Assembly: GCA_964394405.1 (NCBI GenBank)
Contig: CAYMVY010000001.1
Coordinates: 38,546-102,545 of the forward strand
Source of the DNA: an uncultured Gammaproteobacteria bacterium
GTDB taxonomy: Bacteria; Patescibacteriota; Patescibacteriia; Magasanikbacterales; UBA922
Direction: 5' to 3'
DNA: 64,000 nt
The translations under genes were made by a program, and so were the position numbers. The notes beneath the pieces are model-generated. The model worked only from the letters and a program-made list of their open reading frames with translations. It was not told where the DNA came from and ran no database searches. Position 1 is the first letter of the stretch. Every line of letters begins with the position of its first letter. Of this stretch, positions 4,924 to 58,897 are shown one piece after another.

Positions 4924-5625
4924 TTAAGTAACTGGAGTTTCTGACAGAACTTCTACTGACTCCACCTTTGTCTCAACAACAGGGGTTGCCTGTTCTTCTA
5001 TAGTAACCATTCCTTCACTGGTTGAAATATATACCAATCCATTACGTGCTCCAGGAATTGCTCCTTTGATCAATAATTCATGTGATTCAGGATGTACTTC
5101 AATAATCTCAAGATTTTTAACCGTCACCTGATCATTTCCCATGTGTCCGCCCATACGCATATTCTTGAATACGCGCTGTACGCCACCAGCTCCGATACTA
5201 CCAGGCATACGAAGGTTATCTTTGTGTCCATGACTTGCAGGACCTCCGGCAAATCCATGGCGTTTTACTACACCCTGGAAGCCTTTTCCTTTTGACATAC
5301 CTGTAACCTGTACTTTCTCTCCTGCTGCAAAAATACCTGCATTGAATCGATCACCTTTCTTAAGATGAGCTACATCGCCTCTAAAATCTTTGAGAAAACG
5401 GACAGTAAGCTGTGGGTTGTCTGCAACAGTAATATCTTTGAGATGTCCTTTCTCAGCTTTAGTCAAACGAAAAGCTTTCTGTACTCCAAAACCAATTTGC
5501 GCAGCACCTTCTTTCACTTGTGTGACAACACAAGGACCCGCTTGTACGCGAGTTACCGGAACTACGGTTCCATCTGCTTTGAATACTTGTGTCATTCCTA
5601 CTTTTTTCCCAATGATGAATTTCAT
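4924..5625 (-). CDS. rplC: 50S ribosomal protein L3
   Basis: Starts MKFIIGKKVGMTQVF and contains FKADGTVVPVTRV; a classic L3. Confidence 0.95.
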   Translation of the reverse strand: MKFIIGKKVGMTQVFKADGTVVPVTRVQAGPCVVTQVKEGAAQIGFGVQKAFRLTKAEKGHLKDITVADNPQLTVRFLKDFRGDVAHLKKGDRFNAGIFAAGEKVQVTGMSKGKGFQGVVKRHGFAGGPASHGHKDNLRMPGSIGAGGVQRVFKNMRMGGHMGNDQVTVKNLEIIEVHPESHELLIKGAIPGARNGLVYISTSEGMVTIEEQATPVVETKVESVEVLSETPVT

Positions 5626-6337: not shown

Positions 6338-7555
6338 TTATGCAATAATCTTAGTAACAACCCCTGCTCCTACGGTGCGACCACCTTCACGGATAGCGAA
6401 GCGCATTTGCTCTTCGATAGCTACAGGAACAATAAGCTTGATTTTGATATTTACCGTATCACCTGGCATTACCATCTCAGTTCCCTCTGGAAGAGTAACT
6501 TCTCCGGTAACGTCAGTGGTTCGAATATAGAACTGTGGTTTGTACCCATTGAAGAATGGCTTGTGTCGTCCACCTTCTTCTTTGGTCAACGCGTATACTT
6601 CAGCTTCTACTTCAGTATGAGGTTTGATTGAACCAGTCTTTGCAAGCACCATACCGCGCTCTACTTCTTCTTTCTTGGTACCACGAAGCAAGATTCCGGC
6701 ATTGTCTCCTGCCTGACCCTGCTGCAATGATTTGTTGAACATTTCAACTCCAGTCACCGTAGTCTTCATGGTTTCAGGGCGCATACCAACGATCTCGATT
6801 TCATCACCGATCTTGATAATACCACGCTCAATACGACCAGTTACTACAGTTCCGCGTCCTTCAATTGAGAACACGTCTTCTACAGGCATGAAGAAATTCT
6901 TATCAAGATCACGAATTGGATCTGGAATATACTCATCAAGAGTCTTCAAGAGATCAAGAATAGGCTTAGCAGCTTCAGCATCATTTGGATTCTCAAGAGC
7001 CTTGAGAGAAGAACCTCGTACAATTGGAGTAGTATCTCCAGGGAACTGGTATTTCTTCAACAGATCTCGAACTTCTTCTTCCACAAGGTCGATAAGTTCA
7101 GGATCAGTTACCTGATCAACTTTGTTCAAATAAACAACGATATAAGGTACTCCTACCTGGCGTGCGAGAAGAATGTGCTCGCGAGTCTGAGGCATCGGAC
7201 CGTCTGCTGCAGAAACTACAAGAATAGCTCCGTCCATCTGTGCTGCACCAGTAATCATGTTCTTTACATAGTCAGCATGACCAGGACAGTCTACGTGAGC
7301 GTAGTGTCGCTTTTCAGTTTCATACTCTACGTGTGCAGTAGCAATGGTGATACCACGAGCTTTTTCTTCAGGAGCTGCGTCGATTTCATCAACGTTCTTT
7401 GCCTGAGCTTGTAAACCATGAGCAGCAGCAACTTTGAGGATTGCAGCAGTCGTCGTGGTCTTACCGTGGTCTACGTGACCAATTGTTCCCACATTCACAT
7501 GCGGTTTGTTTCTTAGAAATTCTGCCATATTGGGTGGCTTAGTTCTTTCCCGCAC
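6338..7555 (-). CDS. tuf: Elongation factor Tu
   Basis: 405 aa with [17 protein letters not shown] and NKVD G-motifs; full EF-Tu domain structure. Confidence 0.97.
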
Positions 7556-7638
7556 TACATCCGAATGGTCGGAGTAGATTTATATCCAGCGGAGATAAAT
7601 ATTTAAATTAAAATAAAGGCATACGAAATGCGTTGGGG

Positions 7639-7667
7639 AGTATACGGTATTTATAGAAACTCGTCAA
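7639..7667 (-). promoter_or_regulatory. sigma70-type promoter for tuf (TTGACG-N17-TATACT)
   Basis: The minus strand reads cTTGACGagtttctataaataccgTATACT about 85 nt upstream of the tuf ATG. Confidence 0.5.
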
Positions 7668-7726
7668 GAGGGGTTTCCCTGGGGAAAACCTGGGGATTAC
7701 TAGGGGCAAAAAAACAGTAAAATTCC

Positions 7727-8308
7727 CTAAGTAATTGGCTCCTCCAAAAATACCGGATCATCATCGCCTTCAAGCGAAGATTCCTCCTCAAATAATGCAG
7801 TGCTCACGCCCGATGAATCCATGCTTATTCCTGAAGTTACCTCCATAGGTTGAAACGAACGTGGTTCTTCGACTGGAGTATAGGTATGAATGGGTTCTGC
7901 AGAATCATCCTCATTCAATTTTCTTTTCTTATGACGAGTATCAATCAGATCGCTCACCCGATGCCAGTCAGTATGATGTGCAAAATCTTCCTCAAAAGGG
8001 TCAGATAATGGTTCGTCTGCAAGCTGGTCTTCGAGAAGTGCAGCTTGTTTGTCACGGGTATTCAGCTCCTGGTAAGATCTCCAAATCGCAATATCACGAT
8101 TGATCTTATCAATCAATTCTCGCTCTGACATTTCTTCAAGTAAATATTCATCATAATCTCCATGTCCAAACTGATTGGAGGAAACCAATTCTTCGTACTG
8201 CTCAAATGGCAAAACCACCACATCATGTGCTTGGGTTGGGTCATGGATCACCACCGTATCCCCTGTTTTTTTCGAAAGCGAAAGTATCCGGTTGAGTCTA
8301 TCAATCAT
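7727..8308 (-). CDS. Hypothetical acidic protein (D/E-rich)
   Basis: 193-aa ORF in an intergenic gap with no recognizable domain. It has its own promoter, TTGACA-N17-gTATAAT. Confidence 0.6.
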   Translation of the reverse strand: MIDRLNRILSLSKKTGDTVVIHDPTQAHDVVVLPFEQYEELVSSNQFGHGDYDEYLLEEMSERELIDKINRDIAIWRSYQELNTRDKQAALLEDQLADEPLSDPFEEDFAHHTDWHRVSDLIDTRHKKRKLNEDDSAEPIHTYTPVEEPRSFQPMEVTSGISMDSSGVSTALFEEESSLEGDDDPVFLEEPIT

Positions 8309-8343
8309 AGGATATATTAATAATAAATTGGGGGGATGTACTG

Positions 8344-8373
8344 ATTATACCTACAGAAAAGTCAGGGTGTCAA
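8344..8373 (-). promoter_or_regulatory. Near-consensus sigma70 promoter (TTGACA-N17/18-TATAAT)
   Basis: The minus strand reads gTTTGACAccctgacttttctgtagGTATAATcag about 35 nt upstream of the ATG at 8308. Confidence 0.55.
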
Positions 8374-8492
8374 ACCGAAAAAAATACAATTATTCTAATT
8401 GACCTAAGTACTCTAAAATAATACACCATTTGAAATAAGTTAGAATGATTAGAATAATTTTCCCATCCGTTCTATTTATCCACCAAAAAATC

Positions 8493-8521
8493 TTGACGCA
8501 TGATAAAAAAAATAATACAAT
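8493..8521 (+). promoter_or_regulatory. sigma70 promoter (TTGACG-N17-TACAAT) driving a non-coding transcript
   Basis: The plus strand reads cTTGACGcatgataaaaaaaataaTACAAT. Confidence 0.5.
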
Positions 8522-8527
8522 GATCGT

Positions 8528-8897
8528 CTGTTCTTTTTTTGGTATAAGAGTTACTGTGTGGAAAGCTAGTCCGATGAGGAGCAAGCGCTGGTGAATAATT
8601 CACCGCCCTTTCTCCTGACCGGACTTCTCTGTCCGCCAGGTTAGATCGCATTCGCGATCTTCATCTTCTACCGCCACACAAAGGAAAATACCATGCGCCT
8701 CAGGGTTGCAATCAAAAGGCCTGAATCACTCTTCGCCCTGTCCGTGGTCGCCTCCGGACTCATCCTGTCGATCGCAGGACTGTTCCGGAGCTGAACTTCG
8801 TCCGATCTTCGGCCCCCCTCCTCCGGGAGGGGTGGCCTATCGGACGAAAAAAACAAACCAAAAAAAACAAAACGCGATATTGCGTTTTTTTGTTTAT
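8528..8897 (+). ncRNA. Candidate structured ncRNA of about 370 nt with unknown identity
   Basis: Bounded by the promoter at 8493-8521 and an intrinsic terminator (aaaacgcgatattgcgttttttt, 8866-8897). About 57% GC in an AT-rich genome. Multiple nested GC helices, for example cgtccgat...ggcccccctcctccgggaggggtggcc...atcggacg and ctccgga...tccggag. No SD-linked ORF. Confidence 0.45.
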
Positions 8898-9121
8898 TAA
8901 CAATCAAAGAACACTAATTGTGTACAACAAAATAATTAAAGTTAATATCAAAATATTTGTTAAATAAAACATTAGGGGTTCGGGGGTGAAAACTGTCCGA
9001 GCTACGAGTGTAGAATAAATGGGGAAACTTAGTGAGGCGAGTTTTTTCACCCCCGAAACTTTTTGTAAAACTTTTTGGTTACAAAAAGTTTTGGATAAAG
9101 CATTTAAGTATTTTGCAAATA

Positions 9122-9162
9122 AATTAAAAACAAAAACCCCGCTCTTCCTAGAAGGGCGGGGC
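9122..9162 (-). terminator. Intrinsic terminator downstream of the 16S rRNA gene
   Basis: The minus strand reads ccccgcccttctaggaagagcggggtttttgttttt. Confidence 0.6.
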
Positions 9163-9331
9163 TATGTTATTGAAGATATTTCACAAAATACATGTGGCAA
9201 AAACCTTGTTCCGACGTTACGTCGAGAACGATTGAATGTTTTCTTATACTTAGAGCAATGCCAGATCATACTCTTGCGAGTGTAATCATGACTTTGGATA
9301 AATCTCGATTTTCATCGAGATCAGACTCCAG

Positions 9332-10835
<1,504 letters not shown>

Positions 10836-11398: not shown

Positions 11399-12136
11399 CT
11401 ACTTACTCTGTTTTTTGCGCCATTCAGCGATTTTTTTGTGATCTCCACTCAGCAGAACCTCAGGCACTTTCCATCCCTTAAAATCTACAGGTTTTGTATA
11501 CTGTGGATACTCAACTTCAATCTCTTGCATTCCACTTTTTACCTTTTCCTTTTTACTTTTTACTTTATTAAAAGTTTCCTCCACCAACGACTCCGCATTC
11601 CCCAATACTCCTGGCACCAATCGAGACACTGCTTCGATAATCGTAAGCGCTCCCAATTCACCACCTGCCAACACATATGGACCAACTGAAATTTCCTCAT
11701 CAATCATATGATCCACGACCCGCTGATCTACTCCTTCGTATCGACCGCAAATCAAAATAAGTTCATCAAGTTTGGCCCAAGATTCGGCAATTGATTGATC
11801 AAACTGTCGTCCACGTGGAGACAATAATACCGTCCGTTTTTTCTTTGCAACCGTTCCAGTTGCCAGTCGTTTGAGTTTAGTTAAACCAGGAGCTTTTTTG
11901 AATGGCAATCCATCAATCGACACCAGTGCCTCATAAATCGGATCTGGCTTCATGAGCATCCCCGCTCCCCCGCCATACGGTGTATCATCCACCGTCTTGT
12001 GTTTGTCATATGTGAAGTCTCGAATATAAATCGCCCGCACATCAATCAATTTCTTTTTTTGCGCACGACCAAGAATCGTCTCATCAGTATATGAAGTAAT
12101 AATGTTTGGAAAAAGTGTGAGTACTGAAAATTTCAT
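11399..12136 (-). CDS. trmD: tRNA (guanine37-N1)-methyltransferase
   Basis: 245 aa with SPOUT/TrmD motifs (LTLFP, DDTPYGGGAGM, ICGRYEGVD, GPYVLAGGE). Confidence 0.9.
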   Translation of the reverse strand: MKFSVLTLFPNIITSYTDETILGRAQKKKLIDVRAIYIRDFTYDKHKTVDDTPYGGGAGMLMKPDPIYEALVSIDGLPFKKAPGLTKLKRLATGTVAKKKRTVLLSPRGRQFDQSIAESWAKLDELILICGRYEGVDQRVVDHMIDEEISVGPYVLAGGELGALTIIEAVSRLVPGVLGNAESLVEETFNKVKSKKEKVKSGMQEIEVEYPQYTKPVDFKGWKVPEVLLSGDHKKIAEWRKKQSK

Positions 12137-12252: not shown

Positions 12253-12684
12253 TCAGCCGAGCGTGCCCGCCAAGATCGGCGCGAAGAGCTTCTCGGGATC
12301 TTCGGACTCGACAGTGCCCTCACCCTTCTCCAGGTAGACGCGCATGCGCCCCGTGCGCTCGAGTGGAACGTCGTGCGCCAAGTAGAACACATCGACCTTG
12401 AAGAACCTCTCCTCGATCAGGTCACGGATCTGGCCGATCAGGAGCAACGCCCCCGGCTTCGGCTCGTAGTAGGAGATGCTCTCCACGAACAGCTCGAGCT
12501 GATTCGGGAAGATGCCACGCCCGTCGACACAGACCGTCATGGGCTGACGATCAGTGGTGTGGTAGTAGTCCCGGTGGGACACATAGATGTCCCAGATCCC
12601 CGAATTGTTCGAATTCGAGACGATCGGAAGGGTGACAAAATCTTTCCCCTCCTCCCCGACAGACACGTTGTCCAAAGCTCCCAT
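12253..12684 (-). CDS. Hypothetical protein A1 of GC-rich island A (paralog of the 58303-58725 protein)
   Basis: Internal Met preceded by the SD gtcgccAGGGGGttatcATG. About 55% GC. Shares the spaced motif EGxxF..LP...YYxxxDRxxxxVxDGxGxFxN with the island E protein. Confidence 0.6.
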   Translation of the reverse strand: MGALDNVSVGEEGKDFVTLPIVSNSNNSGIWDIYVSHRDYYHTTDRQPMTVCVDGRGIFPNQLELFVESISYYEPKPGALLLIGQIRDLIEERFFKVDVFYLAHDVPLERTGRMRVYLEKGEGTVESEDPEKLFAPILAGTLG

Positions 12685-12875
12685 GATAACCCCCTGGCGA
12701 CTGAAGAAAAACACGTGCTGGTGTCGCAAACCAGACAGAAAAAAATATCATACATAGTGAAAAATGTCAATAATAAAACAAAAAATCCTCTGAATAAAGG
12801 ATTGACCAATCCGCATTCACCCAAGCCGAAGCTCAGATGAATGCGGAACAGAGAACGTTGACCCACACACTGACC

Positions 12876-13175
12876 TCACGGGTCGAGGACGATCACGTAG
12901 CGCGTCACCTGTTCATCCGGCTGATGGGGCACGTCGTGAACATTGGGACCGATCCGTTCGATCGAGACGATGGTATTGTAGTTCAGCATGGCGAACCACG
13001 CCGAATCCGGGAACACAATCATCTCAGACGTCCGATCACCGTCATGCGTCCAGTGAAGGGAAAAAAGATTTTCAGGAAAACCCCCATAGGAGATGCGGCC
13101 AGTCTCCTTATTACCCTGATCATCATACCGAGCCAGCGGCGAACCACGAAATTCCAAACCGTACAGAATATCCAT
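12876..13175 (-). CDS. Hypothetical protein A2 of GC-rich island A
   Basis: 99-aa ORF with the SD caGGAGGGttttccATG and its own promoter about 35 nt upstream. GC-rich codon usage. Confidence 0.55.
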   Translation of the reverse strand: MDILYGLEFRGSPLARYDDQGNKETGRISYGGFPENLFSLHWTHDGDRTSEMIVFPDSAWFAMLNYNTIVSIERIGPNVHDVPHQPDEQVTRYVIVLDP

Positions 13176-13213
13176 GGAAAACCCTCCTGAAACAGTGGCG
13201 TTTCTTATCATAC

Positions 13214-13248: not shown

Positions 13249-13277
13249 TTGAAAAATATATATAGGTCGGGTATGAT
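13249..13277 (+). promoter_or_regulatory. sigma70 promoter (TTGAAA-N17-TATGAT) for the nucleotide-sanitation operon; near-leaderless mRNA
   Basis: The plus strand reads aTTGAAAaatatatataggtcgggTATGATacagcctgcgtATG. The -10 element ends only 11 nt before the ATG at 13289 and there is no SD. Confidence 0.5.
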
Positions 13278-13288
13278 ACAGCCTGCGT

Positions 13289-13813
13289 ATGAAACTTCTC
13301 AAACTCCCACAACTCAAACAAATCTACGAATACGACTGTGGCGCAACCGTACTCCAGTCAGTACTCGGCTACTTTGGCATCGAAGTGAAGCCACACAAAA
13401 TCAGAAAACATGCGGGAACAAACAAAGATGGCACCCTGATTGTCGGCATCACCGTAACTCTCGCAAAACACGGACTCAAATATACGTCAAAACAAATGAC
13501 CGTACGCGAAGTCACTCATTTTCTCGATACTGGCATCCCTGTCATACTCCTCCTCCAGGCATGGACGACCAAAAAGAATGTCAATTGGGAAACAGATTGG
13601 TCTGATGGCCACTATGTAGCGGCCATAGGATATGACAAGAAAAAAATGATATTCGCAGACCCCTGGTCATTCACACACACGTATCTAACTTTCGATGAAC
13701 TAAAAAAACGATGGCATGACAAAGATCCTCGGGGAAAAAAACACATCAACTGGGGAATCGCAGTCTACGGAAAAGATCCATCAATCAACAAAAAATTAAT
13801 CCACATGGATTAA
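13289..13813 (+). CDS. C39-like papain-fold cysteine peptidase (Peptidase_C39_2 family)
   Basis: Catalytic Cys in YDCGATVLQSVLGYFG and His in GHYVAAIGYD. Confidence 0.65.
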   Translation: MKLLKLPQLKQIYEYDCGATVLQSVLGYFGIEVKPHKIRKHAGTNKDGTLIVGITVTLAKHGLKYTSKQMTVREVTHFLDTGIPVILLLQAWTTKKNVNWETDWSDGHYVAAIGYDKKKMIFADPWSFTHTYLTFDELKKRWHDKDPRGKKHINWGIAVYGKDPSINKKLIHMD

Positions 13814-13816
13814 TAT

Positions 13817-14257
13817 ATGCATACACGACACACCATTATTCCCGCCGCATACCTCATACTCAAACAAGAAAACAAGATTCTTCTGATTCGCCGTTGTAAC
13901 ACCGGTTTTGAAGATGGAAATTATAGTATGATTGCCGGACATGTGGACCAAGGTGAGACATTTACTAAAGGTATGATTCGTGAAGCGAGAGAAGAAGCTG
14001 GAATCACACTCAATCCAGATGATATGAGATTAGCACACATGATGCATCGCAAATCTCACGTAGACGCTGAAGAAAGAATCGACGCATATTTTCTTGCAAA
14101 TACGTGGTCTGGTGAACTTACCAATAAGGAACCACACAAATGCGATGACTTCTCGTGGTTTGATATAAATGACTTACCAAAAAATGTTATCCCCTATATC
14201 AAATTCGCGTTGGAAAATATTAAAAAAAATATTTTCTATAGCGAATATGGATGGTAA
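13817..14257 (+). CDS. NUDIX hydrolase
   Basis: Nudix box GHVDQGETFTKGMIREAREEAGI. Confidence 0.85.
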   Translation: MHTRHTIIPAAYLILKQENKILLIRRCNTGFEDGNYSMIAGHVDQGETFTKGMIREAREEAGITLNPDDMRLAHMMHRKSHVDAEERIDAYFLANTWSGELTNKEPHKCDDFSWFDINDLPKNVIPYIKFALENIKKNIFYSEYGW

Positions 14258-14574
14258 TAAATACTATGGATTTCAAAGAATTACAAAAAATCATCGTCAA
14301 AAATGCACTTGAATACGGAAAAAGACATAACATACAAATAGATGCAGATTTTGCGCTCACTAAATTATTTGAAGAAGTAGGAGAACTGGCGCAGGCAGTA
14401 CTCATTCATCAGAAAAAATGTCGCACAAAAAAATTAGTACCCGAAGAGATATCAAAAAAAGAGCTCGGAAAAGAACTCGCTGATGTTATCGGCATGACCA
14501 TTGTACATGCTCACCTGCTCGGGATTGATCTGGAAGAAGCGATTGATAAAAAATGGATTCATAAAGAGGTATAG
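14251..14574 (+). CDS. MazG-like nucleotide pyrophosphohydrolase
   Basis: Contains the EEVGELAQAV and ELADVIGM motifs of the MazG all-alpha NTP-PPase fold; 107 aa. Confidence 0.75.
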   Translation: MVINTMDFKELQKIIVKNALEYGKRHNIQIDADFALTKLFEEVGELAQAVLIHQKKCRTKKLVPEEISKKELGKELADVIGMTIVHAHLLGIDLEEAIDKKWIHKEV

Positions 14575-14577
14575 AAT

Positions 14578-14928
14578 ATGAAAAACCGCAAACGCCTCAT
14601 GTATATTGAACATAAAGGAGTGGATGGGTTGACCGGACATAGTAGAATCGGTTGGGTTGAAATTTCCAAAACGGGACGATCATACCACTACCAAGGAAAA
14701 ACTTTCAAAAAAGAACGTGGTGGTTTCAAACACAATTGTATCGATTGGGAAACCAAAGAAATGTATTGGATCTCAGGACCGAAAAAAGACGGAAGTGATA
14801 CATTGTACGGGAAAGGCATAGTGGAAATTGATGACGATGCGCGTGAAGAATACTGGATCAATATTCGAAAACTTCCACAATATGTAAACGAACGAACATA
14901 TAATACCGCTCGGAGATATAATAGCTAA
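14578..14928 (+). CDS. Hypothetical protein (operon member)
   Basis: 116-aa ORF tightly packed with its neighbours (3-nt gaps). No recognizable motif. Confidence 0.6.
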   Translation: MKNRKRLMYIEHKGVDGLTGHSRIGWVEISKTGRSYHYQGKTFKKERGGFKHNCIDWETKEMYWISGPKKDGSDTLYGKGIVEIDDDAREEYWINIRKLPQYVNERTYNTARRYNS

Positions 14929-14931
14929 CAT

Positions 14932-15513
14932 ATGAAAATCGCAATTGATATCGATGACGTACTGGCAAATTTTACCCCAGCACTCATTGAATTCCACAAT
15001 ACACAATACGGAACCAATTACACTCTCAATCATTTCAATTCATACCATCTTGAAGAAGTGTGGGGCGGGACTCGAGAAGAAGCAATTGACAAAGTATTTA
15101 TTTTTTACGAAACGCCAGAGTTCAAAAATGTTGACGTCATTGAGAATGCAAAAAATGTACTCTACGAACTCAAACAGAGTCACGACCTAGTCACCATGAC
15201 AGCACGCCCAGAAGCAATCAGGGACAAAACAGAAGAATGGATTGGGAGACATTTCCCGGGGCTATTTTCACACATTCATATTGCCAATCGATTTTCAAAG
15301 ACAGGCCCAAAAACTACCAAAGCTGAATTGTGCGAAAAACATGGTGTAGATATGCTTATCGACGACTCACTCGATTACGCGCTCCAGGCAGTAGCACCCC
15401 ATCGCCGAGTATTGTTATTCGACAGACCATGGAACCAGACACCAAATCTACCAGAAGGAATTCATCGCGTACATTCGTGGAAAGAAATCCCAAAACTCAT
15501 ATGGAATTCCTAG
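14932..15513 (+). CDS. HAD-superfamily 5'(3')-deoxyribonucleotidase (NT5C-like)
   Basis: N-terminal DxDxV motif (KIAIDIDDVLANF) and LIDDS motif. Confidence 0.75.
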   Translation: MKIAIDIDDVLANFTPALIEFHNTQYGTNYTLNHFNSYHLEEVWGGTREEAIDKVFIFYETPEFKNVDVIENAKNVLYELKQSHDLVTMTARPEAIRDKTEEWIGRHFPGLFSHIHIANRFSKTGPKTTKAELCEKHGVDMLIDDSLDYALQAVAPHRRVLLFDRPWNQTPNLPEGIHRVHSWKEIPKLIWNS

Positions 15514-15989
15514 ATGTTGTCAGCGACCGCGATGAAGTGATTGGAAGAGCCTCTCGAGATGAGATATACAAAAAACTCCTTCCCCACCGTATCGTGCATA
15601 TCTTGATTTTTAATGATAGGCAAGAAATGGCACTACAGCTCCGAAGCAAAATAGCGTCATTCTGTCCTGGTCACTGGTCGACTGCTGTCGGTGGACATGT
15701 GCAATCAGGAGAAAATTATGAGCAAGCAGCGCTCCGTGAATCAGAGGAAGAATTGGGAATAAAAAGTGAGTTGCAACTATTGGGTAGCGATATCTATGAA
15801 GCAAAAAATAGACCAAAAAAATTCCTCAGAACATTTACCACTCAATATAATGGACCATTCAAAACAGAAGAAGGCGCTGTCGAAAAAGTAGAATTTTTTC
15901 CATTAGAAAAGATAAAGCAAATGATTTTAGGTAAAGAAAAATTCCATCCAGAACTTTTGTATATACTTCAAAAATATTTTGTAAACTAA
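15501..15989 (+). CDS. NUDIX hydrolase (second copy)
   Basis: Nudix box GGHVQSGENYEQAALRESEEELGI. The start was chosen at MEFLD, overlapping the previous gene by 13 nt. Confidence 0.75.
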   Translation: MEFLDVVSDRDEVIGRASRDEIYKKLLPHRIVHILIFNDRQEMALQLRSKIASFCPGHWSTAVGGHVQSGENYEQAALRESEEELGIKSELQLLGSDIYEAKNRPKKFLRTFTTQYNGPFKTEEGAVEKVEFFPLEKIKQMILGKEKFHPELLYILQKYFVN

Positions 15990-16018
15990 AACACCCGGCC
16001 ATGGCCGGGTGTTTTTTT
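15988..16018 (+). terminator. Intrinsic terminator
   Basis: aaaacacccggccatggccgggtgttttttt. Confidence 0.7.
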
Positions 16019-16109: not shown

Positions 16110-17375
16110 ATGGATCCAAATTTGGTGCAGCAACAAAATTCAAACATTCATCCACGAACTGTATTATACATCGTACTCTCAATTATTCTTACTGCAGGAA
16201 TTGTTGGTGGTGCAATGTATTGGTGGAAATCATCAGAAAATACAAAATTAACACGAATAAATAAAGCACAGAGTGTACAGATAGATAGTTATAAAATACA
16301 GCTGACCGCCAAGAACAGCACATCAGAAAGTACACAGGAAACTATTGAACCAAAAAACCCCAAAATGCAAAAATACCATAACAATGAATACGGATTTGAA
16401 TTTGAATATCCTGAAACCAATTTCCTGATTGAAAATGTTTGGTCAATCTCACCATCAATAAAAGATTTAAGTCATCAATTTGATGATCCGGGTCTTATTG
16501 TACAATTAACTAACGATAGCCAAACTCAAAATGTCATAGATATAGCAGTACTTGCAATCAAAAAAGAAGCAGTCGAATCTCTATTTACACGACTAAAATC
16601 AGGACAAGAAAAAAGTCAGAAAACAGGAGACGCTTGGTGTAAAAAATTTATCTCTGAAGAAGGGTTTGAGCAATGTGCCTATTACGGTGGAGGCTGGACA
16701 TATTCGACTACAACCATTGATGGTGTACAGGCCGTGGAAGCATTTTTTGCAGGCGAGGGTGGTAGGACAAAAAAAATATTTTTACCTTCCAAAGGAATTT
16801 CTATCTATATGGAAAACCCGGGAGATAAAAGAATACTTTCCGATGATGATTTTCTTAAATCTTTCAAATTTACAGACTCTACTCGAACTATAGTCGACTC
16901 ATCGACTCAAATCTCGTTCAACTGTCCCGCGTATTGGTCATGTGACTATATTGATACGGACACTATACCACGATACAATTTGTACGGACCTCAAAATCAA
17001 TATATTGAACTAAACCTGAAGAATGCGATAGAGAAGGATATCGAAAAATTAATCGAGGATAAAAAAATAGACAACGAAGAAGATGAAGTAAAATACGCAA
17101 AAGCACTCAGTGAATGTAAATCAAAAAATGGAACTCCTGAAGAATGCGATAGCTATGTAAGCTATACCGCAGGAATGATTTTCACGGATAAAGAAAGTAC
17201 GATGTCAATAAAAGGAGAACAAGGAGTATTTTCTGGAGAACGCATATTTTATAAAGGAGATTACTTTGGCTTCAACCTATTCTTTCCAAAAAAAGGCTGG
17301 ATAATATCTGCTTCACTGCAGAGTGGCGACGATATACGTATGTCTAAAGAATTTATCGAAAGCCTCTTCAAATAA
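16110..17375 (+). CDS. Hypothetical membrane-anchored or secreted protein
   Basis: 421 aa with one N-terminal TM helix (VLYIVLSIILTAGIVGGAMYWW) and a large hydrophilic domain. Confidence 0.65.
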   Translation: MDPNLVQQQNSNIHPRTVLYIVLSIILTAGIVGGAMYWWKSSENTKLTRINKAQSVQIDSYKIQLTAKNSTSESTQETIEPKNPKMQKYHNNEYGFEFEYPETNFLIENVWSISPSIKDLSHQFDDPGLIVQLTNDSQTQNVIDIAVLAIKKEAVESLFTRLKSGQEKSQKTGDAWCKKFISEEGFEQCAYYGGGWTYSTTTIDGVQAVEAFFAGEGGRTKKIFLPSKGISIYMENPGDKRILSDDDFLKSFKFTDSTRTIVDSSTQISFNCPAYWSCDYIDTDTIPRYNLYGPQNQYIELNLKNAIEKDIEKLIEDKKIDNEEDEVKYAKALSECKSKNGTPEECDSYVSYTAGMIFTDKESTMSIKGEQGVFSGERIFYKGDYFGFNLFFPKKGWIISASLQSGDDIRMSKEFIESLFK

Positions 17376-17458: not shown

Positions 17459-19558
17459 TTACTTCATCTTCCCACTTACAACCTGTGCCTCAATATTCTT
17501 GGGACATTCAGCATACTTCGAGAACTCCATAGCATATGTTGCTCGTCCCTGAGTCATCGATCGGAGGGAAGTAGCATAGCCAAACATACTGGCGAGAGGT
17601 ACCATAGCGCGAATAACTTTTGCAGTTCCTCGCTGAGTCATCTCCTCGATCTGACCTCGCTTACTTGAAAGGTCTCCAATGACGTCTCCCATATACTCTT
17701 CAGGAGTCGTAACTTCTACTTTCATGATAGGTTCGAGTAATACAGGATTTGCTTTATTCGCAGCTGCGACAAATGCCATACTTCCTGCGAGCTTGAAAGC
17801 GATTTCACTAGAGTCGACCTCGTGATAACTTCCATCAAATACCGTCACTTTTACATCAAGAATTGGATAGCCTGCAACAATACCTTTGCCCACCGCTTCT
17901 TTCACACCTTTTTCAATCGCAGGAATATATTCACGTGGGATCAATCCTCCCTTGATATCATCCACAAAGACGAGATTTTCTCCACCAGCTTCTGCTTTTT
18001 CTTCAGGAGTGAGCGGTTCTACTTTGAGCCAGCAATGTCCGTATTGACCACGTCCACCAGACTGTTTGACATGCTTTCCTTCAGCCTCAGCGCTCTGGCG
18101 AATAGTTTCTTTATACGCAACCTGTGGAGCACCTACTTGTGCCTCTACTTTGAACTCACGGCGCATACGATCAACGATAATGTCGAGATGTAATTCTCCC
18201 ATTCCCGCGATAATAGTCTGAAGTGTTTCAGGATCACTTGATACTCGGAATGTAGGATCTTCTTCAGCAAGTTTCTGTAGTGCGATACTCATCTTTTCAG
18301 CATCACCCTTGGTATTAGGTTCAATAGCAACAGAAATAACCGGTTCTGGGAAGGTAGGTCGCTCGAGTACTACAGGTCGAGATTCTTCGCACAAAGTATC
18401 TCCAGTAGTCGTATTCTTGAGACCAATTGCAGCTGCGATTTCTCCTGCATATACCTGCTCTACATCTTCACGAGTATTTGCATGAAGTCGCACAATTCGT
18501 CCAATACGCTCTTTGGTACCATTAGTACTATTCAATACATAGGTTCCTGCTTTCAAATTTCCAGAATACACACGGAAGAAAGTAAGGCGTCCAACAAAAG
18601 GATCAGTCGCGACTTTGAATGCGAGTCCAACAAAAGGATCAGTGTCGCTTGATTTTACTTCAATAATTTTTTCTTCATCATCTGGATCATGCGCAGTGAT
18701 AACGGGCATATCAACCGGAGCCGGCAAATACGCAACCACATTGTCGAGTACCAATTGTACTCCAATGTTCTGCAAAGCAGTTCCACACATGACTGGATAA
18801 ATTTCATCTTTCAAAACCATACTGCGGATTGCAGTTTTGATTTCTTCAATTGAAAGTGTGTTAGTTTCAAGATATTTATTCATGAGCTCATCACTTGCTT
18901 CAGCTACTTTTTCAAGCAATGCAGAGCGATATTCTGCGACCTGAGCTTTCATATCTTCGGGAATTTCAAATTCCACTACATTGATTCCATGATCCCCTTC
19001 AAATCGATACGCTTTCTCTTCAATAATATCGATAATCCCTTTAAACTCAGACTCCATACCGATAGGCAATTGAATTGCAAAAGCGTTTGGAGACAATCGA
19101 GTTCTAATTGAATTTAATGTCATGAAAAAGTCAGCACCAGTCTTATCCATCTTGTTGGCAAAACAAATACGAGGCACGCGATATTTATCTGCCTGACGCC
19201 ATACAGTCTCAGACTGTGGTTCTACCCCCTGTGAGCCATCGAATACTGCAACTGCTCCATCGAGTACGCGGAGTGATCGCTCTACTTCTACGGTAAAGTC
19301 TACGTGGCCTGGAGTATCGATCAAGTTGATGCGATGATTTTTCCAAAAACACGTGGTAGCAGCAGAAGTAATGGTAATACCGCGCTCTTTTTCCTGTTCC
19401 ATCCAGTCCATTTCAGCAGCACCTTCGTGAACTTCTCCGATTTTGTGTTTTTTTCCAGTATAAAAAAGAATCCGTTCAGAAACCGTCGTCTTTCCAGCAT
19501 CAATATGCGCCATGATACCGATATTGCGCACGCGCTCAAGTGGATAATCTCGTCCCAT
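17459..19558 (-). CDS. fusA: Elongation factor G
   Basis: 699 aa starting AHIDAGKTT, with DTPGHVDF and the EF-G domains II-V. Confidence 0.97.
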
Positions 19559-19586
19559 AAAAATTGGGGTTAATGGTAAATATTAC

Positions 19587-20066
19587 TTAGCGACTAAAAC
19601 GTGCGAAGTGTGCAAACGCTTTGTTTGCTTCAGCCATACGATGCATATCATCACGCTTTTTGATTGCTCCTCCATTACCTTCAAGCACATCCATACATTC
19701 CTGAGCGAGCTTTTCAGCCATGGTTCGTCCTTTTCGTGAATATGCTGCTCCCACAATCCATCGGAATGCCAGGGCATTCTGTCGGCTACTCGATACAGGC
19801 ATTGGCACCTGATAGTTAGCACCTCCCACGCGTCGTGAGCGAACTTCTACCTGTGGACGAACTGCCTCAAGTGATTGTTCAAATATTTTAAGTGGGTCGG
19901 ATTTCTTTTTTTCTTTCAAAATATCAAGTGTCTGGTACACAATATGTTCTGCGGTTGATTTCTTTCCGTCCTTCATAACAAAGTTGATGAACTTTGCCAA
20001 TAATTCACTCTTGTACAGTGGGTCCGGAGTTGGTGTTCGTTTGAATCCTCTTTTTCCTCGTGGCAT
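19587..20066 (-). CDS. rpsG: 30S ribosomal protein S7
   Basis: Starts MPRGKRGFKRTPTPDPLYKSELLAKFIN; 159 aa. Confidence 0.95.
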   Translation of the reverse strand: MPRGKRGFKRTPTPDPLYKSELLAKFINFVMKDGKKSTAEHIVYQTLDILKEKKKSDPLKIFEQSLEAVRPQVEVRSRRVGGANYQVPMPVSSSRQNALAFRWIVGAAYSRKGRTMAEKLAQECMDVLEGNGGAIKKRDDMHRMAEANKAFAHFARFSR

Positions 20067-20100
20067 ATATTTCTGTAATGATTATCTAATGAAAAGTGAG

Positions 20101-20529
20101 TTATTTCTTTGCAGCTTTCGGACGTTTCGCACCGTAGATCGAACGACTGCGTCTTCGTGCTTCCACTCCCTGAGTATCATATACTCCGCGAACAATATGG
20201 TAACGCACACCAGGTAAGTCTTTTACACGACCACCACGGATAAGTACGATTGAGTGTTCTTGCAAATTGTGTCCTTCACCAGGAATATAGGCAATAATTT
20301 CTGAACCATTAGAAAGACGAACTTTCGCTACTTTTCGAAGCGCTGAGTTAGGTTTCTTTGGAGTCATGGTATACACCTTGGTGCATACACCACGTTTAAA
20401 TGGTGCTCCGCGGCGAAGTTCGGTTCGTTTACGGTGCAAACTATCGAGTGTAAACTGGAGCGCGGGAGACTTGGATTTATTCTTTCTGGTTACCCGTCCC
20501 TTGCGCAAAATCTGATTCATCGTAGGCAT
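20101..20529 (-). CDS. rpsL: 30S ribosomal protein S12
   Basis: Starts [12 protein letters not shown] and contains [19 protein letters not shown]. Confidence 0.95.
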
Positions 20530-22800: not shown

Positions 22801-23206
22801 ATACACTCATTGCCCACAGATAATAAAACAAAAAACCCTTTTTTTCAAGAGTTCCTTGTATGACCCCAGAGAGATGCAGTACGAAATACTACTCCTAAAG
22901 ATATAGGTGGGTGGCCGCAACGCGAGCCCACGGGCTCGAGAAATATTGGCTTCCCAATGTAGTATGTTTGTAGAATAGTATATGTACTGTATCACTAAGT
23001 ACCAGGGTCAATTCTTAATATATCAAGAGGTACACAATTGTGCAAATACGACTCATCCACTGCCTAGAACATTCTAAATAATGGAGGAGAGACGACCAGA
23101 TGAGACAGGTCGCCGAGAAGCAAAAGAACAATAACGAAAACGCGATAACGCATAAGTCGGGATATCCCAACTCACACGTTACCACTTGGACCTCCCCTGA
23201 CTTCGA

Positions 23207-23406
23207 TCAAGAGTCGTGATTGCCCCGCTGCCGTTTGACCGGAGCTGGGACGGACACGACCTGGGACTCAAAGAGGGGGCGCCGTCGACATCCACGGATA
23301 GTCGCGGGGTCGAGGCGAGCCGTGTCACCACCCGAAGGAGTCGAGGACTTTTTCTTGGACTTGGGCAAATTCTTTGCCCACACTTGATACACATGATTTT
23401 CAGGCA
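23207..23406 (-). CDS. Small hypothetical protein of GC-rich island B (66 aa)
   Basis: SD ttctGAGGAtcgctATG; MPENHVYQVWAKNLPKSKKKSSTPSGG...; basic, GC-rich codons. Confidence 0.4.
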
Positions 23407-23693
23407 TAGCGATCCTCAGAAGGATGCTCGATTGAGTATTCTCAAACTTTGAGTACACTCGCACCAAGCGAAAGTCGGTCCAGACGAAATTCTTTCTTTG
23501 AAAAAACTTATTCTAAAAACATTGCATAAGAATACAAAAATAAAAAAAGCTTGTAAAGAATATTATTACTAATTCCTTACAAGTTATTCACAGATAGATC
23601 TGCCACTATCTTCCGATAATGAAAGACAATGGCAGATGGGCGGTCGACGAGTGGGCACTCATCGATCGCCCCGAGGAAAAGAACGGACGAAAC

Positions 23694-23910
23694 TCACGTA
23701 ACGGCATCAACCTGCTGAGCAGGCGCGTAAGCCGGTGTATACCAGCCAGACCTGTCAACAGTGATAGTTCGCTTGCAGACACACGTGACGCGGCAGCCAT
23801 CTCCACGTGCTTCCACGCTTTCAATGACACCAGCGCCACACGAACACTCGAAGGCCTGACCTTCTCGAATGCGATCAAGCCGACACATTCCTTTGAGTCC
23901 AATGGGCATG
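23694..23910 (-). CDS. Small Cys-rich protein of island B (71 aa)
   Basis: SD cacacAAGGAGagcgaccATG; MPIGLKGMCRLDRIREGQAFECSCGAGVIESVEARGDGCRVTCVCKR with six Cys, possibly a metal-binding knot. Confidence 0.5.
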
Positions 23911-24023
23911 GTCGCTCTCCTTGTGTGACGGGTGAACAAGACGAATGGACGCGGAAGTTGCGAGAGAAGCAACGCGAGAGCCAGAGTTGCCGGCTCAGCG
24001 CGTTACCACACTCATCTTGATAG

Positions 24024-24224
24024 TCAGTCGAGGCCGTACTTGTGACGCAACTCGATCCCCTCACGGAGCTCGAAGAACGGATCGGTGACGTACCTCGGTC
24101 GACGGTTGGGACCGCGATTCGAGTTGTACTTGTGCTTCGGCGGGAGAACCGCCTCCGGGGACTGGGTGGACGCAGTGTCGAGGTTCTGCTGCTGTGACGG
24201 CAGCTTGGAATCAGTTCCAGACAT
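24024..24224 (-). CDS. Small S/T/Q-rich protein of island B (66 aa), member of the MS-x-(T/S)...SP / RxRY..D..EL motif family
   Basis: SD cgAGGGAatgccATG; MSGTDSKLPSQQQNLDTASTQSPEAVLPP...NRRPRYVTDPFFELREGIELRHKYGLD. Confidence 0.5.
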   Translation of the reverse strand: MSGTDSKLPSQQQNLDTASTQSPEAVLPPKHKYNSNRGPNRRPRYVTDPFFELREGIELRHKYGLD

Positions 24225-24304
24225 GGCATTCCCTCGAAATTCTCTCGTGTGGCGCACGAGAGTTATTCGTCTTCCCAAGAATTCCCACCGTAGGAATACT
24301 TGTT

Positions 24305-24355
24305 CAAACGAGTTGCTGTAGGGACAAAAAATCTATCGACACAGCAACTCGTTTG
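24305..24355. repeat. Perfect 15-bp inverted repeat with 21-bp spacer (caaacgagttgctgt ... acagcaactcgtttg)
   Basis: Exact reverse-complement arms read directly from the sequence. Located between two small island B ORFs; no downstream T-tract. Confidence 0.7.
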
Positions 24356-24478
24356 TGACAAATATCCAACAAAATATATAAGGAACAAAACACTCTATTT
24401 CACCCCCTACTAAGTACATATTTTTTACTCAATAGGGGGTGAGCAACGCAGAGGACGATACGTTTTCACCCCACAGAT

Positions 24479-24655
24479 TCACCGAGTGGATGAGGGATCT
24501 CGGAACTTGTGGTTCAGATGATCCTTGTTCGGACGGAGGAGCGACAGGAGAAGCTCTTCGTCGATCTCGTCATAGCGACGACGAGAAGAGAACGGTTCGG
24601 TAGTCGGCGTGGGCGCGACAGGCTCTGGGGGACGGGGAGATTGAGTATCAGACAT
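24479..24655 (-). CDS. Small S/T/P-rich protein of island B (58 aa), same family as 24024-24224
   Basis: GGAG 9 nt upstream; MSDTQSPRPPEPVAPTPTTEPFSSRRRYDEIDEELLLSLLRPNKDHLNHKF. Shares RxRY-D-EL-L-LR with the 24024 ORF. Confidence 0.45.
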   Translation of the reverse strand: MSDTQSPRPPEPVAPTPTTEPFSSRRRYDEIDEELLLSLLRPNKDHLNHKFRDPSSTR

Positions 24656-24704
24656 GGTAGACGGCTCCATTCTAGAGTGGAATGATTCTCTGGGCGAAGA
24701 GGCA

Positions 24705-24740
24705 TTGATCTTGAGGCGAGTTCGAATCTATACACAATTT
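24705..24740 (-). promoter_or_regulatory. Putative promoter (TTGAAT-N18-TGTATAGAT, extended -10) for island B small ORFs
   Basis: The minus strand reads gTTTGAATgtatatatactgaaattgTGTATAGATtcg. Confidence 0.3.
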
Positions 24741-24923
24741 CAGTATATATACATTCAAACCCGCCTCACCAAAGCACATATCAAATACAGACACTCACCA
24801 ATCTCTGCGTTGCAATTTGTAAAGAACAATATCGCTACCCCCCTTCAAAAATCCACATAGCGTTCCTATTCAGGAAAGTGAATATCGATTCACATCGGTA
24901 CTCACTTTCCTGAATTTTTTCCT

Positions 24924-24957
24924 AAAAAAAGACCCCAAACTTTTTGGCTTGGGGTCA
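24924..24957 (-). terminator. Intrinsic terminator
   Basis: The minus strand reads gaccccaagccaaaaagtttggggtcttttttt. Confidence 0.55.
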
Positions 24958-25189
24958 GTTCTAGTAAAAGTTTGAGAATATTATCTCCTCTACCATCTCA
25001 AATTAGTACTAACCCCATGCGAATAATCGAGCGCCATGACAAAGCAAAAATTCACCTTGTTGAGGCGCTTGGTAATGAGATTAATAATTGTCTGAGAAAA
25101 TAATTTCATAAATGTATTACACACATATCTGACTATAACTCTGGATCTGTATGTGGTCAAGCTTTTTACCATACTTATCCACAAGCAAC

Positions 25190-44787: not shown

Positions 44788-45576
44788 TTAAGAAACAATT
44801 TTTCCTTCAATAACATCGTTTTTCCCACCAGAAGTTGGCCCGCCCGGAGATACTTTATCTTTTCTAAAAAGAAGATATTGCTGTCCCGCAGCAAGAACAG
44901 TGCGGAAGAACCAATATAAGACCACGCCAGCTGGAAATTGAAAACCAATAACGACCGTAAGAACAGGCATCATATAGAGCATCTGCTTATTCATCATCGC
45001 AGCCATACTCTCATCCTTAGCCCCTTCACCTGCAACTTTTGGTGGACGCTTGGCAGTAAGCATCTTGGTCTGGACAAACTGTGCCGCACCCGCAAGTACG
45101 GCGAGAATTGCGCTCTTCCCTGCAAGATCAAAAATACCCAGACTCATTGGATCAATTGAACCTGGACTTGGGATAAACGGATAGAGGAGATCAAAAGAAG
45201 TATTTTCAAATGCGCCTTTAAATACATAAAACAACGCCAAAAAAATCGGGATCTGAACTAGTACCGGAAGACATGAACCAAATGGATTAATTTTGTGTTC
45301 TTTGTACAATTTCATGGTTTCGGCAGCCAACTTCTGCTGATCGGCTTTGTACTCCTGTTTGAGCTTTTCCAACTTTGGTTGCATCTCTGCGAGTTCTTTT
45401 TGAGCTCTAATTGATTTATTATTCAATGGGTAGAGGATAATTTGAAATAGAATAGTGATAAGCAAAATCGCAATTCCAACGTCCCCTACCAAATTATAGA
45501 ACCATACGAATAGATTGAAAATCGGTTGATAGATAATCGTCGTAAAAAACTCTTTCATAGCAAAAAATTTATACAT
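44788..45576 (-). CDS. yidC: Membrane protein insertase YidC (short Gram-positive-type form)
   Basis: 262 aa containing the 60-kDa inner-membrane insertase core (PFGSCLPVLVQIPIFLALFYV). Confidence 0.85.
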   Translation of the reverse strand: MYKFFAMKEFFTTIIYQPIFNLFVWFYNLVGDVGIAILLITILFQIILYPLNNKSIRAQKELAEMQPKLEKLKQEYKADQQKLAAETMKLYKEHKINPFGSCLPVLVQIPIFLALFYVFKGAFENTSFDLLYPFIPSPGSIDPMSLGIFDLAGKSAILAVLAGAAQFVQTKMLTAKRPPKVAGEGAKDESMAAMMNKQMLYMMPVLTVVIGFQFPAGVVLYWFFRTVLAAGQQYLLFRKDKVSPGGPTSGGKNDVIEGKIVS

Positions 45577-57845: not shown

Positions 57846-58049
57846 CTAGAACCCGAAACGGGAGCGGATCCAGTTCCACACACCCTTGGAGGGCTGCTGA
57901 TTGGACGGGGTGACCGCCGTGCTCTTCTGGTCGGGAGTGGCGAGCGCACGCAAGATGTCGGCGTCGGGCGACGGGGACACCTTGAGATTGCTGTTCGACG
58001 AGGTCGACTGGCGGAGACGGGACTGACGGAGTTCCCTGGAGTTGGACAT
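57846..58049 (-). CDS. Small S/T-rich protein E2 of GC-rich island E (68 aa), similar in composition to island B small proteins
   Basis: MSNSRELRQSRLRQSTSSNSNLKVSPSPDADILRALATPDQKSTAVTPSNQQPSKGVWNWIRSRFGF. Its own promoter lies upstream; the first ATG of the track ORF lies upstream of the predicted TSS. Confidence 0.45.
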   Translation of the reverse strand: MSNSRELRQSRLRQSTSSNSNLKVSPSPDADILRALATPDQKSTAVTPSNQQPSKGVWNWIRSRFGF

Positions 58050-58155
58050 CGTGGCACCATTTCCGGAGCGAGCGAATAAGAGCGCCGAGACTGACGCAAT
58101 ACTGCTACACTTCGGAGTTAAGAGCCACGAAACAAATAATTTTGAGTATCTACAC

Positions 58156-58184
58156 AATCTACCCTATAATATATGTTTTGTCAA
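58156..58184 (-). promoter_or_regulatory. sigma70 promoter (TTGACA-N17-TAGATT) for the E2 ORF
   Basis: The minus strand reads gaTTGACAaaacatatattatagggTAGATTgtg. Confidence 0.45.
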
Positions 58185-58302
58185 TCAGTCTGAAGTATAA
58201 AAACAAAAAATAATTGCTATGATAAGCAATTACTAAGAGAATCGCGACGCACCCCCCTGTAGGAAAAACAGGGAGGCGCGTTGCACAGAAGTCGTGTGTC
58301 GA

Positions 58303-58725
58303 TCAGACGCTCGAGGCGAGCATCTTCTTCCCCACCTCTTCGTCGGTCGCGCGCCGGACGCAGGCGTAGAGGGTATCGACCCACACGACGGTCACGTGGG
58401 ACACACCAGGGACGAGTCCTTCGGGTGCGAACATCCGACACGTGCGGGAGCCGCCCGGATTCTTGAAGTAGAACCAGACGCCACCATCCTCGACCCCATG
58501 CCTACGGTCCCGACAGAGCGGGTAATAGACCGGCGTCTCCGGATACTTGTTCGCCTTGTTGCTCGGGAGCGACCGCGCCTCGGCCGGCAGGAGGAAGGTC
58601 AAGCCTTCCTTGAGAAGAACGGACGGCGGTCCGTTGTCCACCGGGATGTCGAGGTGATGGAACACCTCCTTCCCACTCAGATGGCTCATCACCACCTCGG
58701 GCGTATCATCTTCAGAGACCCACAT
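58303..58725 (-). CDS. Hypothetical protein E1 of GC-rich island E (140 aa), paralog of 12253-12684
   Basis: SD acAAGGGGGtcttacATG. Shares EGLTFLLP...YYPLCRDRRHGVEDGGVWFYFKN with island A's EGKDFVTLP...YYHTTDRQPMTVCVDGRGIFPN. Confidence 0.6.
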   Translation of the reverse strand: MWVSEDDTPEVVMSHLSGKEVFHHLDIPVDNGPPSVLLKEGLTFLLPAEARSLPSNKANKYPETPVYYPLCRDRRHGVEDGGVWFYFKNPGGSRTCRMFAPEGLVPGVSHVTVVWVDTLYACVRRATDEEVGKKMLASSV

Positions 58726-58763
58726 GTAAGACCCCCTTGTGCATCATCGCCGATGATTCAGCG

Positions 58764-58792
58764 AGACCAACACAAGATAGATGAAAAAAATG
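58764..58792 (-). promoter_or_regulatory. sigma70 promoter (TTGACA-N17-TATCTT) for E1
   Basis: The minus strand reads cTTGACAaaatcatttttttcatcTATCTT. Confidence 0.45.
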
Positions 58793-58897
58793 ATTTTGTC
58801 AAGTATACAAATAAAAAAACGCCTCATCTGAGTCGCTTGTTACACTCCATATATTGGAAACTGTTCAAAAAATATTAGAGACAATGAGTGGCGTCCA

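Follow-up and report, generated by a model that had tools for sequence, protein, structure and literature searches.

A nucleotide-hydrolase operon of changing gene content at a fixed chromosomal site in Candidatus Magasanikiibacteriota

What does a C39-type cysteine peptidase do at the head of a row of nucleotide hydrolases, and what does a small protein of no described family do in the middle of it? The question is raised by six open reading frames (ORFs) on the plus strand, 13289-15989, of a 64,000-nucleotide stretch of DNA (hereafter the window) from the chromosome of a Candidatus Magasanikiibacteriota bacterium, a member of the candidate phyla radiation (CPR, or Patescibacteria). The six genes, g1 to g6, lie between trmD (11399-12136, minus strand) and fusA-rpsG-rpsL (17459-20529, minus strand), and encode in order the peptidase, a first NUDIX hydrolase (NUDIXa), a MazG-like pyrophosphohydrolase, the protein without a family, an NT5C-type nucleotidase and a second NUDIX hydrolase (NUDIXb). 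A first-pass annotation, made from the letters of the DNA, had read them as a near-leaderless operon for nucleotide sanitation with hints of a phage or defence connection. Our analysis indicates that the operon is an ordinary, changeable and lineage-specific housekeeping cluster of known enzyme families, neither a conserved system nor a new one.

The six genes are packed with junctions of 3, -7 (or +8), 3, 3 and -13 nt; the negative values are overlaps, of g3 with g2 when g3 starts at the first of its two candidate start codons, and of g6 with g5. Such packing bears on one alternative explanation, namely that functionally unrelated small proteins share a transcript simply through tight packing in a 0.6-Mb streamlined genome, and that the nucleotide theme is partly coincidence, NUDIX and HAD proteins being very common. 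Tight junctions are indeed frequent in this DNA, since, of 50 gene pairs on one strand in the rest of the window, 15 are separated by 10 nt or less, but at this background rate a run of five out of five, as found in the operon, has a chance of only about 0.002. Upstream of g1 there is a sigma-70-type promoter with 11 nt between the end of its -10 element and the start codon, and g6 runs into a GC-rich hairpin that folds at -20.3 kcal/mol (z = -4.4) and is followed by a T run (Table 1). The bare promoter consensus occurs at chance level (12 sites found, 9.7 expected); the promoter is credible nonetheless because it is conserved in four related genomes. The cluster thus has one strand, coupled junctions, a single promoter and a single terminator, with conservation in relatives, and co-transcription is deduced from these features. 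Because the relatives keep the promoter and its site (four genomes) and the terminator (three genomes), we regard it as very probable that the six genes form a single transcription unit. The packing, promoter, strong terminator and domain calls of the first-pass annotation were all confirmed at this step.

The boundaries of the unit and its contents behave differently in related genomes. The comparison set consists of the window and four genomes that share the trmD to fusA locus, all of them metagenome-assembled contigs; fusA is 92-95% and trmD about 91% identical to the window. Each of the five genomes has a different gene set. The window carries C39-NUDIXa-MazG-g4-NT5C-NUDIXb, and the other loci carry C39-NUDIXa-g4-NT5C-NUDIXb (L003), NUDIXa-g4-NT5C-NUDIXb (L002, on the same contig as L015), g4-NT5C-NUDIXb (L001) and NUDIXa followed by a shortened NT5C and three unrelated small ORFs (L106). 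Only NT5C is found in all five genomes. Each NUDIX gene is present in four, g4 in four, C39 in two and MazG in one, with no MazG homologue at any of the related loci. The nucleotidase is accompanied by at least one NUDIX hydrolase in every genome. In L106, fusA (7220-9273) is called as two pieces of 628 and 70 amino acids, probably through an assembly frameshift. A metagenome scan with NT5C for more relatives gave two fragmentary distant matches only.

Sequence identity across the locus is as uneven as gene presence. The operon proteins are 64-87% identical between genomes in a mosaic pattern: the C39 peptidase is 87% identical to that of L003, and the adjoining NUDIXa 64%. The promoter, on the other hand, is kept in all five genomes irrespective of which gene comes first, with TTTACA or TTGAAA, a conserved 17-nt spacer and TATGAT or TATCAT. 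Divergence of this region starts directly after the -10 element, and the distance from there to the ATG is 11, 13, 21, 24 or 30 nt depending on the genome. A hairpin with a T run follows the NUDIXb stop codon in L001, L002 and L003, the three relatives that retain g6; its place is equal in all three and its stem sequences differ. We conclude, on good comparative evidence, that the locus is one unit with fixed boundaries and fluid content. Judged by these gene orders, the C39 peptidase and MazG are lineage-specific additions. The expectation of a conserved six-gene unit therefore did not hold, since five gene sets were found in five genomes; what is conserved in relatives is the promoter and the site.

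Table 1 Features of the operon and the 16S rRNA gene of the window
Feature	Coordinates	Strand	Support
Sigma-70-type promoter: TTGAAA (13249-13254), 17-nt spacer, TATGAT (13272-13277)	13249..13277	+	Scan score 10/12
g1: C39-type cysteine peptidase, 174 aa	13289..13813	+	Pfam PF03412, 1.7e-16, 60.7 bits (cut-off 22)
g2: MutT-like NUDIX hydrolase (NUDIXa), 146 aa, intact Nudix box GHVDQGETFTKGMIREAREEAG	13817..14257	+	Pfam PF00293, 6.4e-18, 65.5 bits (cut-off 21.1)
g3: small all-alpha MazG-like NTP pyrophosphohydrolase	14251 or 14266..14574	+	Pfam PF03819, 6.5e-6, 26.8 bits (cut-off 22)
g4: 116 aa	14578..14928	+	No family
g5: NT5C-type HAD 5'(3')-(deoxy)nucleotidase, 193 aa	14932..15513	+	Pfam PF06941, 5.9e-17, 62.5 bits (cut-off 24.8)
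g6: YfcD/DR0079-like NUDIX hydrolase (NUDIXb), 162 aa, intact Nudix box	15501..15989	+	Pfam NUDIX, 2.3e-20, 73.4 bits (cut-off 21.1)
Intrinsic terminator: 12-bp GC-rich hairpin, then T run	15988..16015	+	Starts inside the g6 stop codon
16S rRNA gene	9332-10835	-	Rfam scan

To what use such a unit might be put is best approached through g2, g3, g5 and g6. Both NUDIX proteins combine a profile match with the complete box (GX5EX7REUXEEXGU), that of g2 lying at 13937-14002, and no other Nudix box occurs in the 64 kb. In the Protein Data Bank (PDB), g2 matches 4kyx best (2e-13) and also AtNUDX1, and g6 matches YfcD (2fkb, 6.9e-16) and DR0079 (1q27, 3e-11). In NCBIfam, the nearest models to g2 are MutT or NAD diphosphatase; against the MutT 8-oxo-dGTPase equivalogs (TIGR00586 / NF008044) it scores 35 bits, short of the cut-offs of 97.9 and 148, and g6 scores 83.7 bits against the YfcD equivalog (NF011922), whose cut-off is 152. 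Literature searches on YfcD and on Acb3 turned up no functional assignment. The MazG-type character of g3 is apparent from the metal-binding motifs EEVGE and ELAD (EXXE...EXXD), read in the sequence, and from alignment with the all-alpha enzymes SSO3215 (1vmg, 1.8e-6) and YpjD (2gta).

The nucleotidase g5 shares the Pfam NT5C match and HAD motif I (DxDxV, here DIDDV at residues 6-10) with NT5C/cdN, NT5M/mdN and their bacterial homologues. Its PDB matches are 3bwv and 2jao, but the similarity is remote (E 1.7e-6 to 2e-3) and no NCBIfam model matched. On a distant CPR-like contig (L109, 5001-10570), an NT5C homologue is followed by DUF488, and the genes for dUTPase, SHMT, thymidylate synthase (ThyA), DHFR and thymidylate kinase (Tmk) lie within 5 kb of it, forming a compact thymidylate neighbourhood around a protein that is 48% identical to g5.

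NT5C enzymes dephosphorylate deoxynucleoside monophosphates (dNMPs), and in animals enzymes of the NT5C type form substrate cycles with the deoxynucleoside kinases, whose action they oppose. The CPR bacteria are thought to subsist on nucleosides and nucleotides obtained from hosts or from the environment. With these properties in mind, a route through the operon products can be proposed. In its first part, the NUDIX and MazG enzymes would take (deoxy)nucleoside triphosphates, (d)NTPs, that are aberrant or in surplus down to (d)NMPs, by the reaction expected of housecleaning pyrophosphohydrolases such as MutT/NUDIX enzymes, SSO3215, YpjD and mammalian DCTPP1, in which pyrophosphate is released. 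NT5C would then dephosphorylate the (d)NMPs, and the nucleosides would either leave the cell or be phosphorylated again by the product of tdk, against which the route would work. Such a route, from (d)NTP through (d)NMP to nucleoside, is a reasonable inference; the sequences themselves do not reveal substrate specificity. Nucleotide sanitation is the work of four superfamilies, among them NUDIX and the all-alpha NTP pyrophosphatases, and modified nucleosides enter the dNTP pool by way of salvage kinases (PMC12887539). The operon departs from the known housecleaning enzymes in that none of g2, g3 and g6 reaches an equivalog threshold and in that the three share an operon with a nucleotidase. 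The first-pass annotation had pointed to ndk, tdk, tgt and queA elsewhere in the window as signs of salvage; tdk is identified by a Pfam match, and ndk, tgt and queA are supported by signature motif only.

We therefore lean towards the view that the operon serves to clean up and turn over the nucleotide pool of an organism that would live on salvaged nucleosides, with an NT5C-type nucleotidase and one or two NUDIX hydrolases as its stable content. The first-pass theme of nucleotide hydrolysis is borne out by the presence of two NUDIX proteins, a MazG-like protein and an NT5C-type protein. For the alternative of unrelated proteins on a shared transcript, the fluid gene content across relatives, the great diversity of NUDIX substrates and the lack of a nucleotide link for C39 and g4 elsewhere all count in its favour. 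It has to reckon, however, with the membership of four of the six genes in nucleotide-phosphohydrolase families, with the location of both Nudix boxes of the 64 kb in this one operon and with the constant pairing of NT5C with a NUDIX gene, in addition to the improbable run of tight junctions, and we consider it unlikely.

Several points weigh against the housecleaning account as we have put it. The genomes available number only five, every one of them in metagenome-assembled contigs, co-transcription is an inference, and a dependence on salvage across the whole genome is presumed. With g2 and g6 beneath all NCBIfam equivalog cut-offs, no substrate can be assigned to either, and NUDIX enzymes act also on non-nucleotide diphosphates. 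Finally, the place of g4 in the middle of the operon in four of the five genomes possibly reflects a functional tie.

The peptidase at the head of the operon is a true member of family C39, as judged from its profile, its catalytic residues and its papain-like C39 fold. The catalytic Cys17, His108 and Asp124 and the oxyanion Gln11 are invariant in 26 homologues. The AlphaFold2 (AF2) model of g1 is confident (predicted local distance difference test, pLDDT, 94; predicted template modelling score, pTM, 0.91), and it matches the peptidase domains of PCAT1 and ComA in Foldseek with E values of 3e-9 to 4e-8; the same two domains were matched in a PDB sequence search. With the C39 domains of the bacteriocin exporters PCAT1, ComA and LahT it shares the fold (template modelling score, TM, 0.8 normalised to ComA) and the Gln/Cys/His/Asp catalytic set. 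Unlike them, it is a standalone protein without an ABC transporter, and the neighbours of its family are unrelated. No ABC exporter was found in the operon or in the window, and a loose double-glycine-leader pattern picked out two unconvincing ORFs only in the 64 kb, so a bacteriocin-processing role was rejected. The protein has no signal peptide, and is taken to be cytosolic because Gln11 and Cys17 stand at the very N-terminus and leave no space for one; an unrelated extracellular role, which the first-pass annotation had entertained as an objection to its reading, finds no footing here.

Proteins of the g1 family are standalone and about 175 amino acids long. Counting only those records whose source names an organism, they come from Patescibacteria, Nanoarchaeota, Pacearchaeota and Dehalococcoidia. 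Identities across the Patescibacteria, the DPANN archaea (Nanoarchaeota and Pacearchaeota) and the Dehalococcoidia are 40-58% (P0173-P0258). The distribution of the family suggests transfer between domains among small-celled organisms. At other loci the homologues are found beside translin and a metallophosphoesterase, beside a CCA-type nucleotidyltransferase, or beside an adhesin and TYW3, and at the loci examined none was near NUDIX, NT5C or MazG. Since these neighbours are unrelated, the place of the peptidase in the operon is not a conserved functional link. Literature searches on C39 proteins in the CPR turned up no functional assignment.

The fourth gene encodes a protein that matched no family in Pfam, NCBIfam, PHROGs or PADLOC. 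Its AF2 model is confident (pLDDT 85, pTM 0.78) and has seven beta strands followed by a C-terminal helix, and the conserved motifs are MYIExK, RIGWVxxSKTGRS, GFKxN, YWISGPKKxGxDxLY and IDxDAREEYWxxIR. A Foldseek comparison with the PDB and BFVD gave best E values of 0.33 and 0.19, none below 0.1, and a profile search found no match among PDB sequences. Several folds resembling the PH domain are among the weak top matches, at a TM of about 0.3, and no fold was assigned. The structure prediction that the first-pass annotation had proposed for this product has thus yielded a model and no known fold.

The g4 family is nevertheless large. A word-based search retrieved 23 relatives, and an exhaustive profile search with the threshold at E<=1e-3 reached 1163 representative clusters, a number that falls to 608 at E<=1e-10; relatives were confirmed in at least 565 species-genome stretches. 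Ten longer members have an N-terminal helical extension without a Pfam domain. One relative, 48% identical, is encoded at 5001-5252 of a 101-kb IMG/VR contig classed as viral (L095). The gene neighbourhoods were studied in 80 kept species-genome loci, mostly from Acidobacteriota, Planctomycetota, Myxococcota and Pseudomonadota, of which 78 lie outside the lineage of the window. Guilt by association was of no help, as clustering of the neighbours at the 80 loci produced no cluster present in more than three; the genes next to g4 homologues in other genomes include a P-type ATPase, a ferric reductase with YchF, and IMPDH. None of the 78 outside loci has a relative of NUDIX, NT5C, MazG or C39, and the link of g4 to NT5C and NUDIX is lineage-specific for this reason.

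These distributions bear on a second alternative, in which the six genes make up one integrated pathway, with the C39 protein maturing or regulating a hydrolase, or acting as an amidase on a nucleotide conjugate, and with g4 as a nucleotide-binding subunit. All six genes share a promoter and a terminator and have coupled junctions, the combination C39-NUDIX-g4-NT5C-NUDIX recurs in L003, g4 stands between hydrolase genes in four of the five genomes, and its conserved basic loop (SGPKKxG) could conceivably bind phosphate. But three of the five syntenic loci lack C39, four lack MazG and L106 lacks g4, and neither the C39 homologues elsewhere, which stand by translin, a CCA-adding-type nucleotidyltransferase, TYW3 or adhesins, nor the g4 homologues outside the lineage, which have no recurrent neighbours in 78 loci, keep the company that a pathway would lead one to expect. 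We consider such a pathway quite improbable. In the housecleaning account, C39 and g4 are probably co-transcribed passengers and not steps of the pathway; the first-pass annotation had left both unexplained. A bolder proposal joins the two proteins. According to this proposal, g4 would be a small protein domain that is new and, with >1000 clusters at 50% identity, very widespread; it may bind nucleotides or phosphorylated ligands, and in Magasanikiibacteriota it may have come to serve the NT5C and NUDIX enzymes as a partner or regulator. The standalone C39 family of CPR and DPANN would have a cytosolic role apart from bacteriocin export. Taken together, we hold these claims to be unlikely.

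A third alternative would see in the locus a mobile module inserted at a trmD-fusA hot spot, whether for anti-phage defence, for dNTP depletion or as a phage-derived auxiliary set, in line with the phage and defence contexts to which the first-pass annotation had alluded. Phage auxiliary sets include the same families (MazG, NUDIX and 5'-nucleotidase, with a PHROG 5'-3' deoxyribonucleotidase), the content of the locus varies between near-identical backgrounds, and its identities are mosaic. In PHROGs, the match of NT5C is to phrog_420 (4e-28), and those of the NUDIX and MazG proteins are to NUDIX and MazG-like pyrophosphatase families. These matches reflect general families. Unlike the phage sets, the operon has no close viral relatives and occupies a fixed chromosomal site: IMG/VR scans detected no relatives of C39 or NT5C and one distant relative of g4, and neither tblastn with NT5C nor blastn with the whole operon found a match in 50,697 phage records. 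PADLOC gave weak matches of the NUDIX proteins to the candidate PDC-S07, nothing for the other four proteins and no other sign of a defence system. The G+C content of the operon (0.37-0.43) is similar to that of the remaining window, no tRNA adjoins it (the nearest is tRNA-Pro, about 6.7 kb off), and promoter and site are constant across the five genomes. The operon thus did not qualify as a prophage or phage island by viral relatives and adjacent tRNA, integrases and flanking repeats not having been searched for. A phage or defence origin was rejected, and we rate the mobile module as highly improbable. The hinted connection was not borne out, and no phage genes were found around the operon.

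How the operon would be translated follows from its layout. The first gene would be translated from a leader of 3-5 nt without a Shine-Dalgarno (SD) sequence, and translation of the downstream genes would probably be coupled through the 3-nt gaps or overlaps. The near-leaderless start described by the first-pass annotation is confirmed, and the absence of an SD sequence, although true, was overstated as a special feature of the operon. The 16S rRNA 3' end carries the canonical CCUCCU (region 9332-9345, minus strand), but an SD match of at least 5 nt precedes only 3 of the 64 ORFs of the window, and fusA, rpsG, rpsL and tuf have none; SD absence is the norm, and its reading as an operon-specific feature was rejected. 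Near-leaderless starts are not unique to the operon either, because the window has one other good promoter match (44788-45576) in which 11-12 nt separate the -10 element from the start codon.

The surroundings of the operon have some features of their own. Two small ORFs, 12253-12729 and 12876-13211 (both minus strand), diverge from the operon promoter region. At 0.51, their G+C content is higher than that of the genome (about 0.41), and nothing in Pfam, PHROG or PADLOC matches them; their position is kept in all five related genomes at an identity of only 28-60%, where fusA has 92-95%. The promoter-proximal one probably starts at ATGGAT near 13175 and has a perfect SD sequence, AGGAGGG, upstream, which is rare in this SD-poor genome. 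Between the operon terminator and fusA there is an ORF of 421 amino acids (16110-17375, plus strand) whose product has a membrane anchor at its N-terminus and matches no family; it is absent from L001-L003 and has only a weak 35-residue match in L106. An Rfam scan found no RNA family within or beside the operon. The 16S rRNA gene is complete, and no 23S or 5S gene was found in the 64 kb, so that the rRNA genes appear to be unlinked; ORFs of 110 amino acids or more are missing from its flanks over about 1 kb in one direction and 0.5 kb in the other. Further G+C-rich patches (0.48-0.51) lie at 23001-25000 and 58001-59000. The first contains an ORF without a Pfam match (23606-24229) and the second ambiguous ORFs on both strands (58294-58878).

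None of these findings overturns current understanding. They show a slot framed by a fixed promoter and, in most of the genomes, by a fixed terminator, in which the genes change between genomes whose fusA is about 95% identical, and thereby illustrate the reshuffling of accessory hydrolases in streamlined genomes. They also draw attention to the g4 domain and to the standalone C39 peptidase of the CPR and DPANN as two families yet to be characterised. If the sanitising pyrophosphatases and the dNMP phosphatase do act together, the operon would be a sensible adaptation to salvage, through which nucleosides that are damaged or modified reach the dNTP pool.

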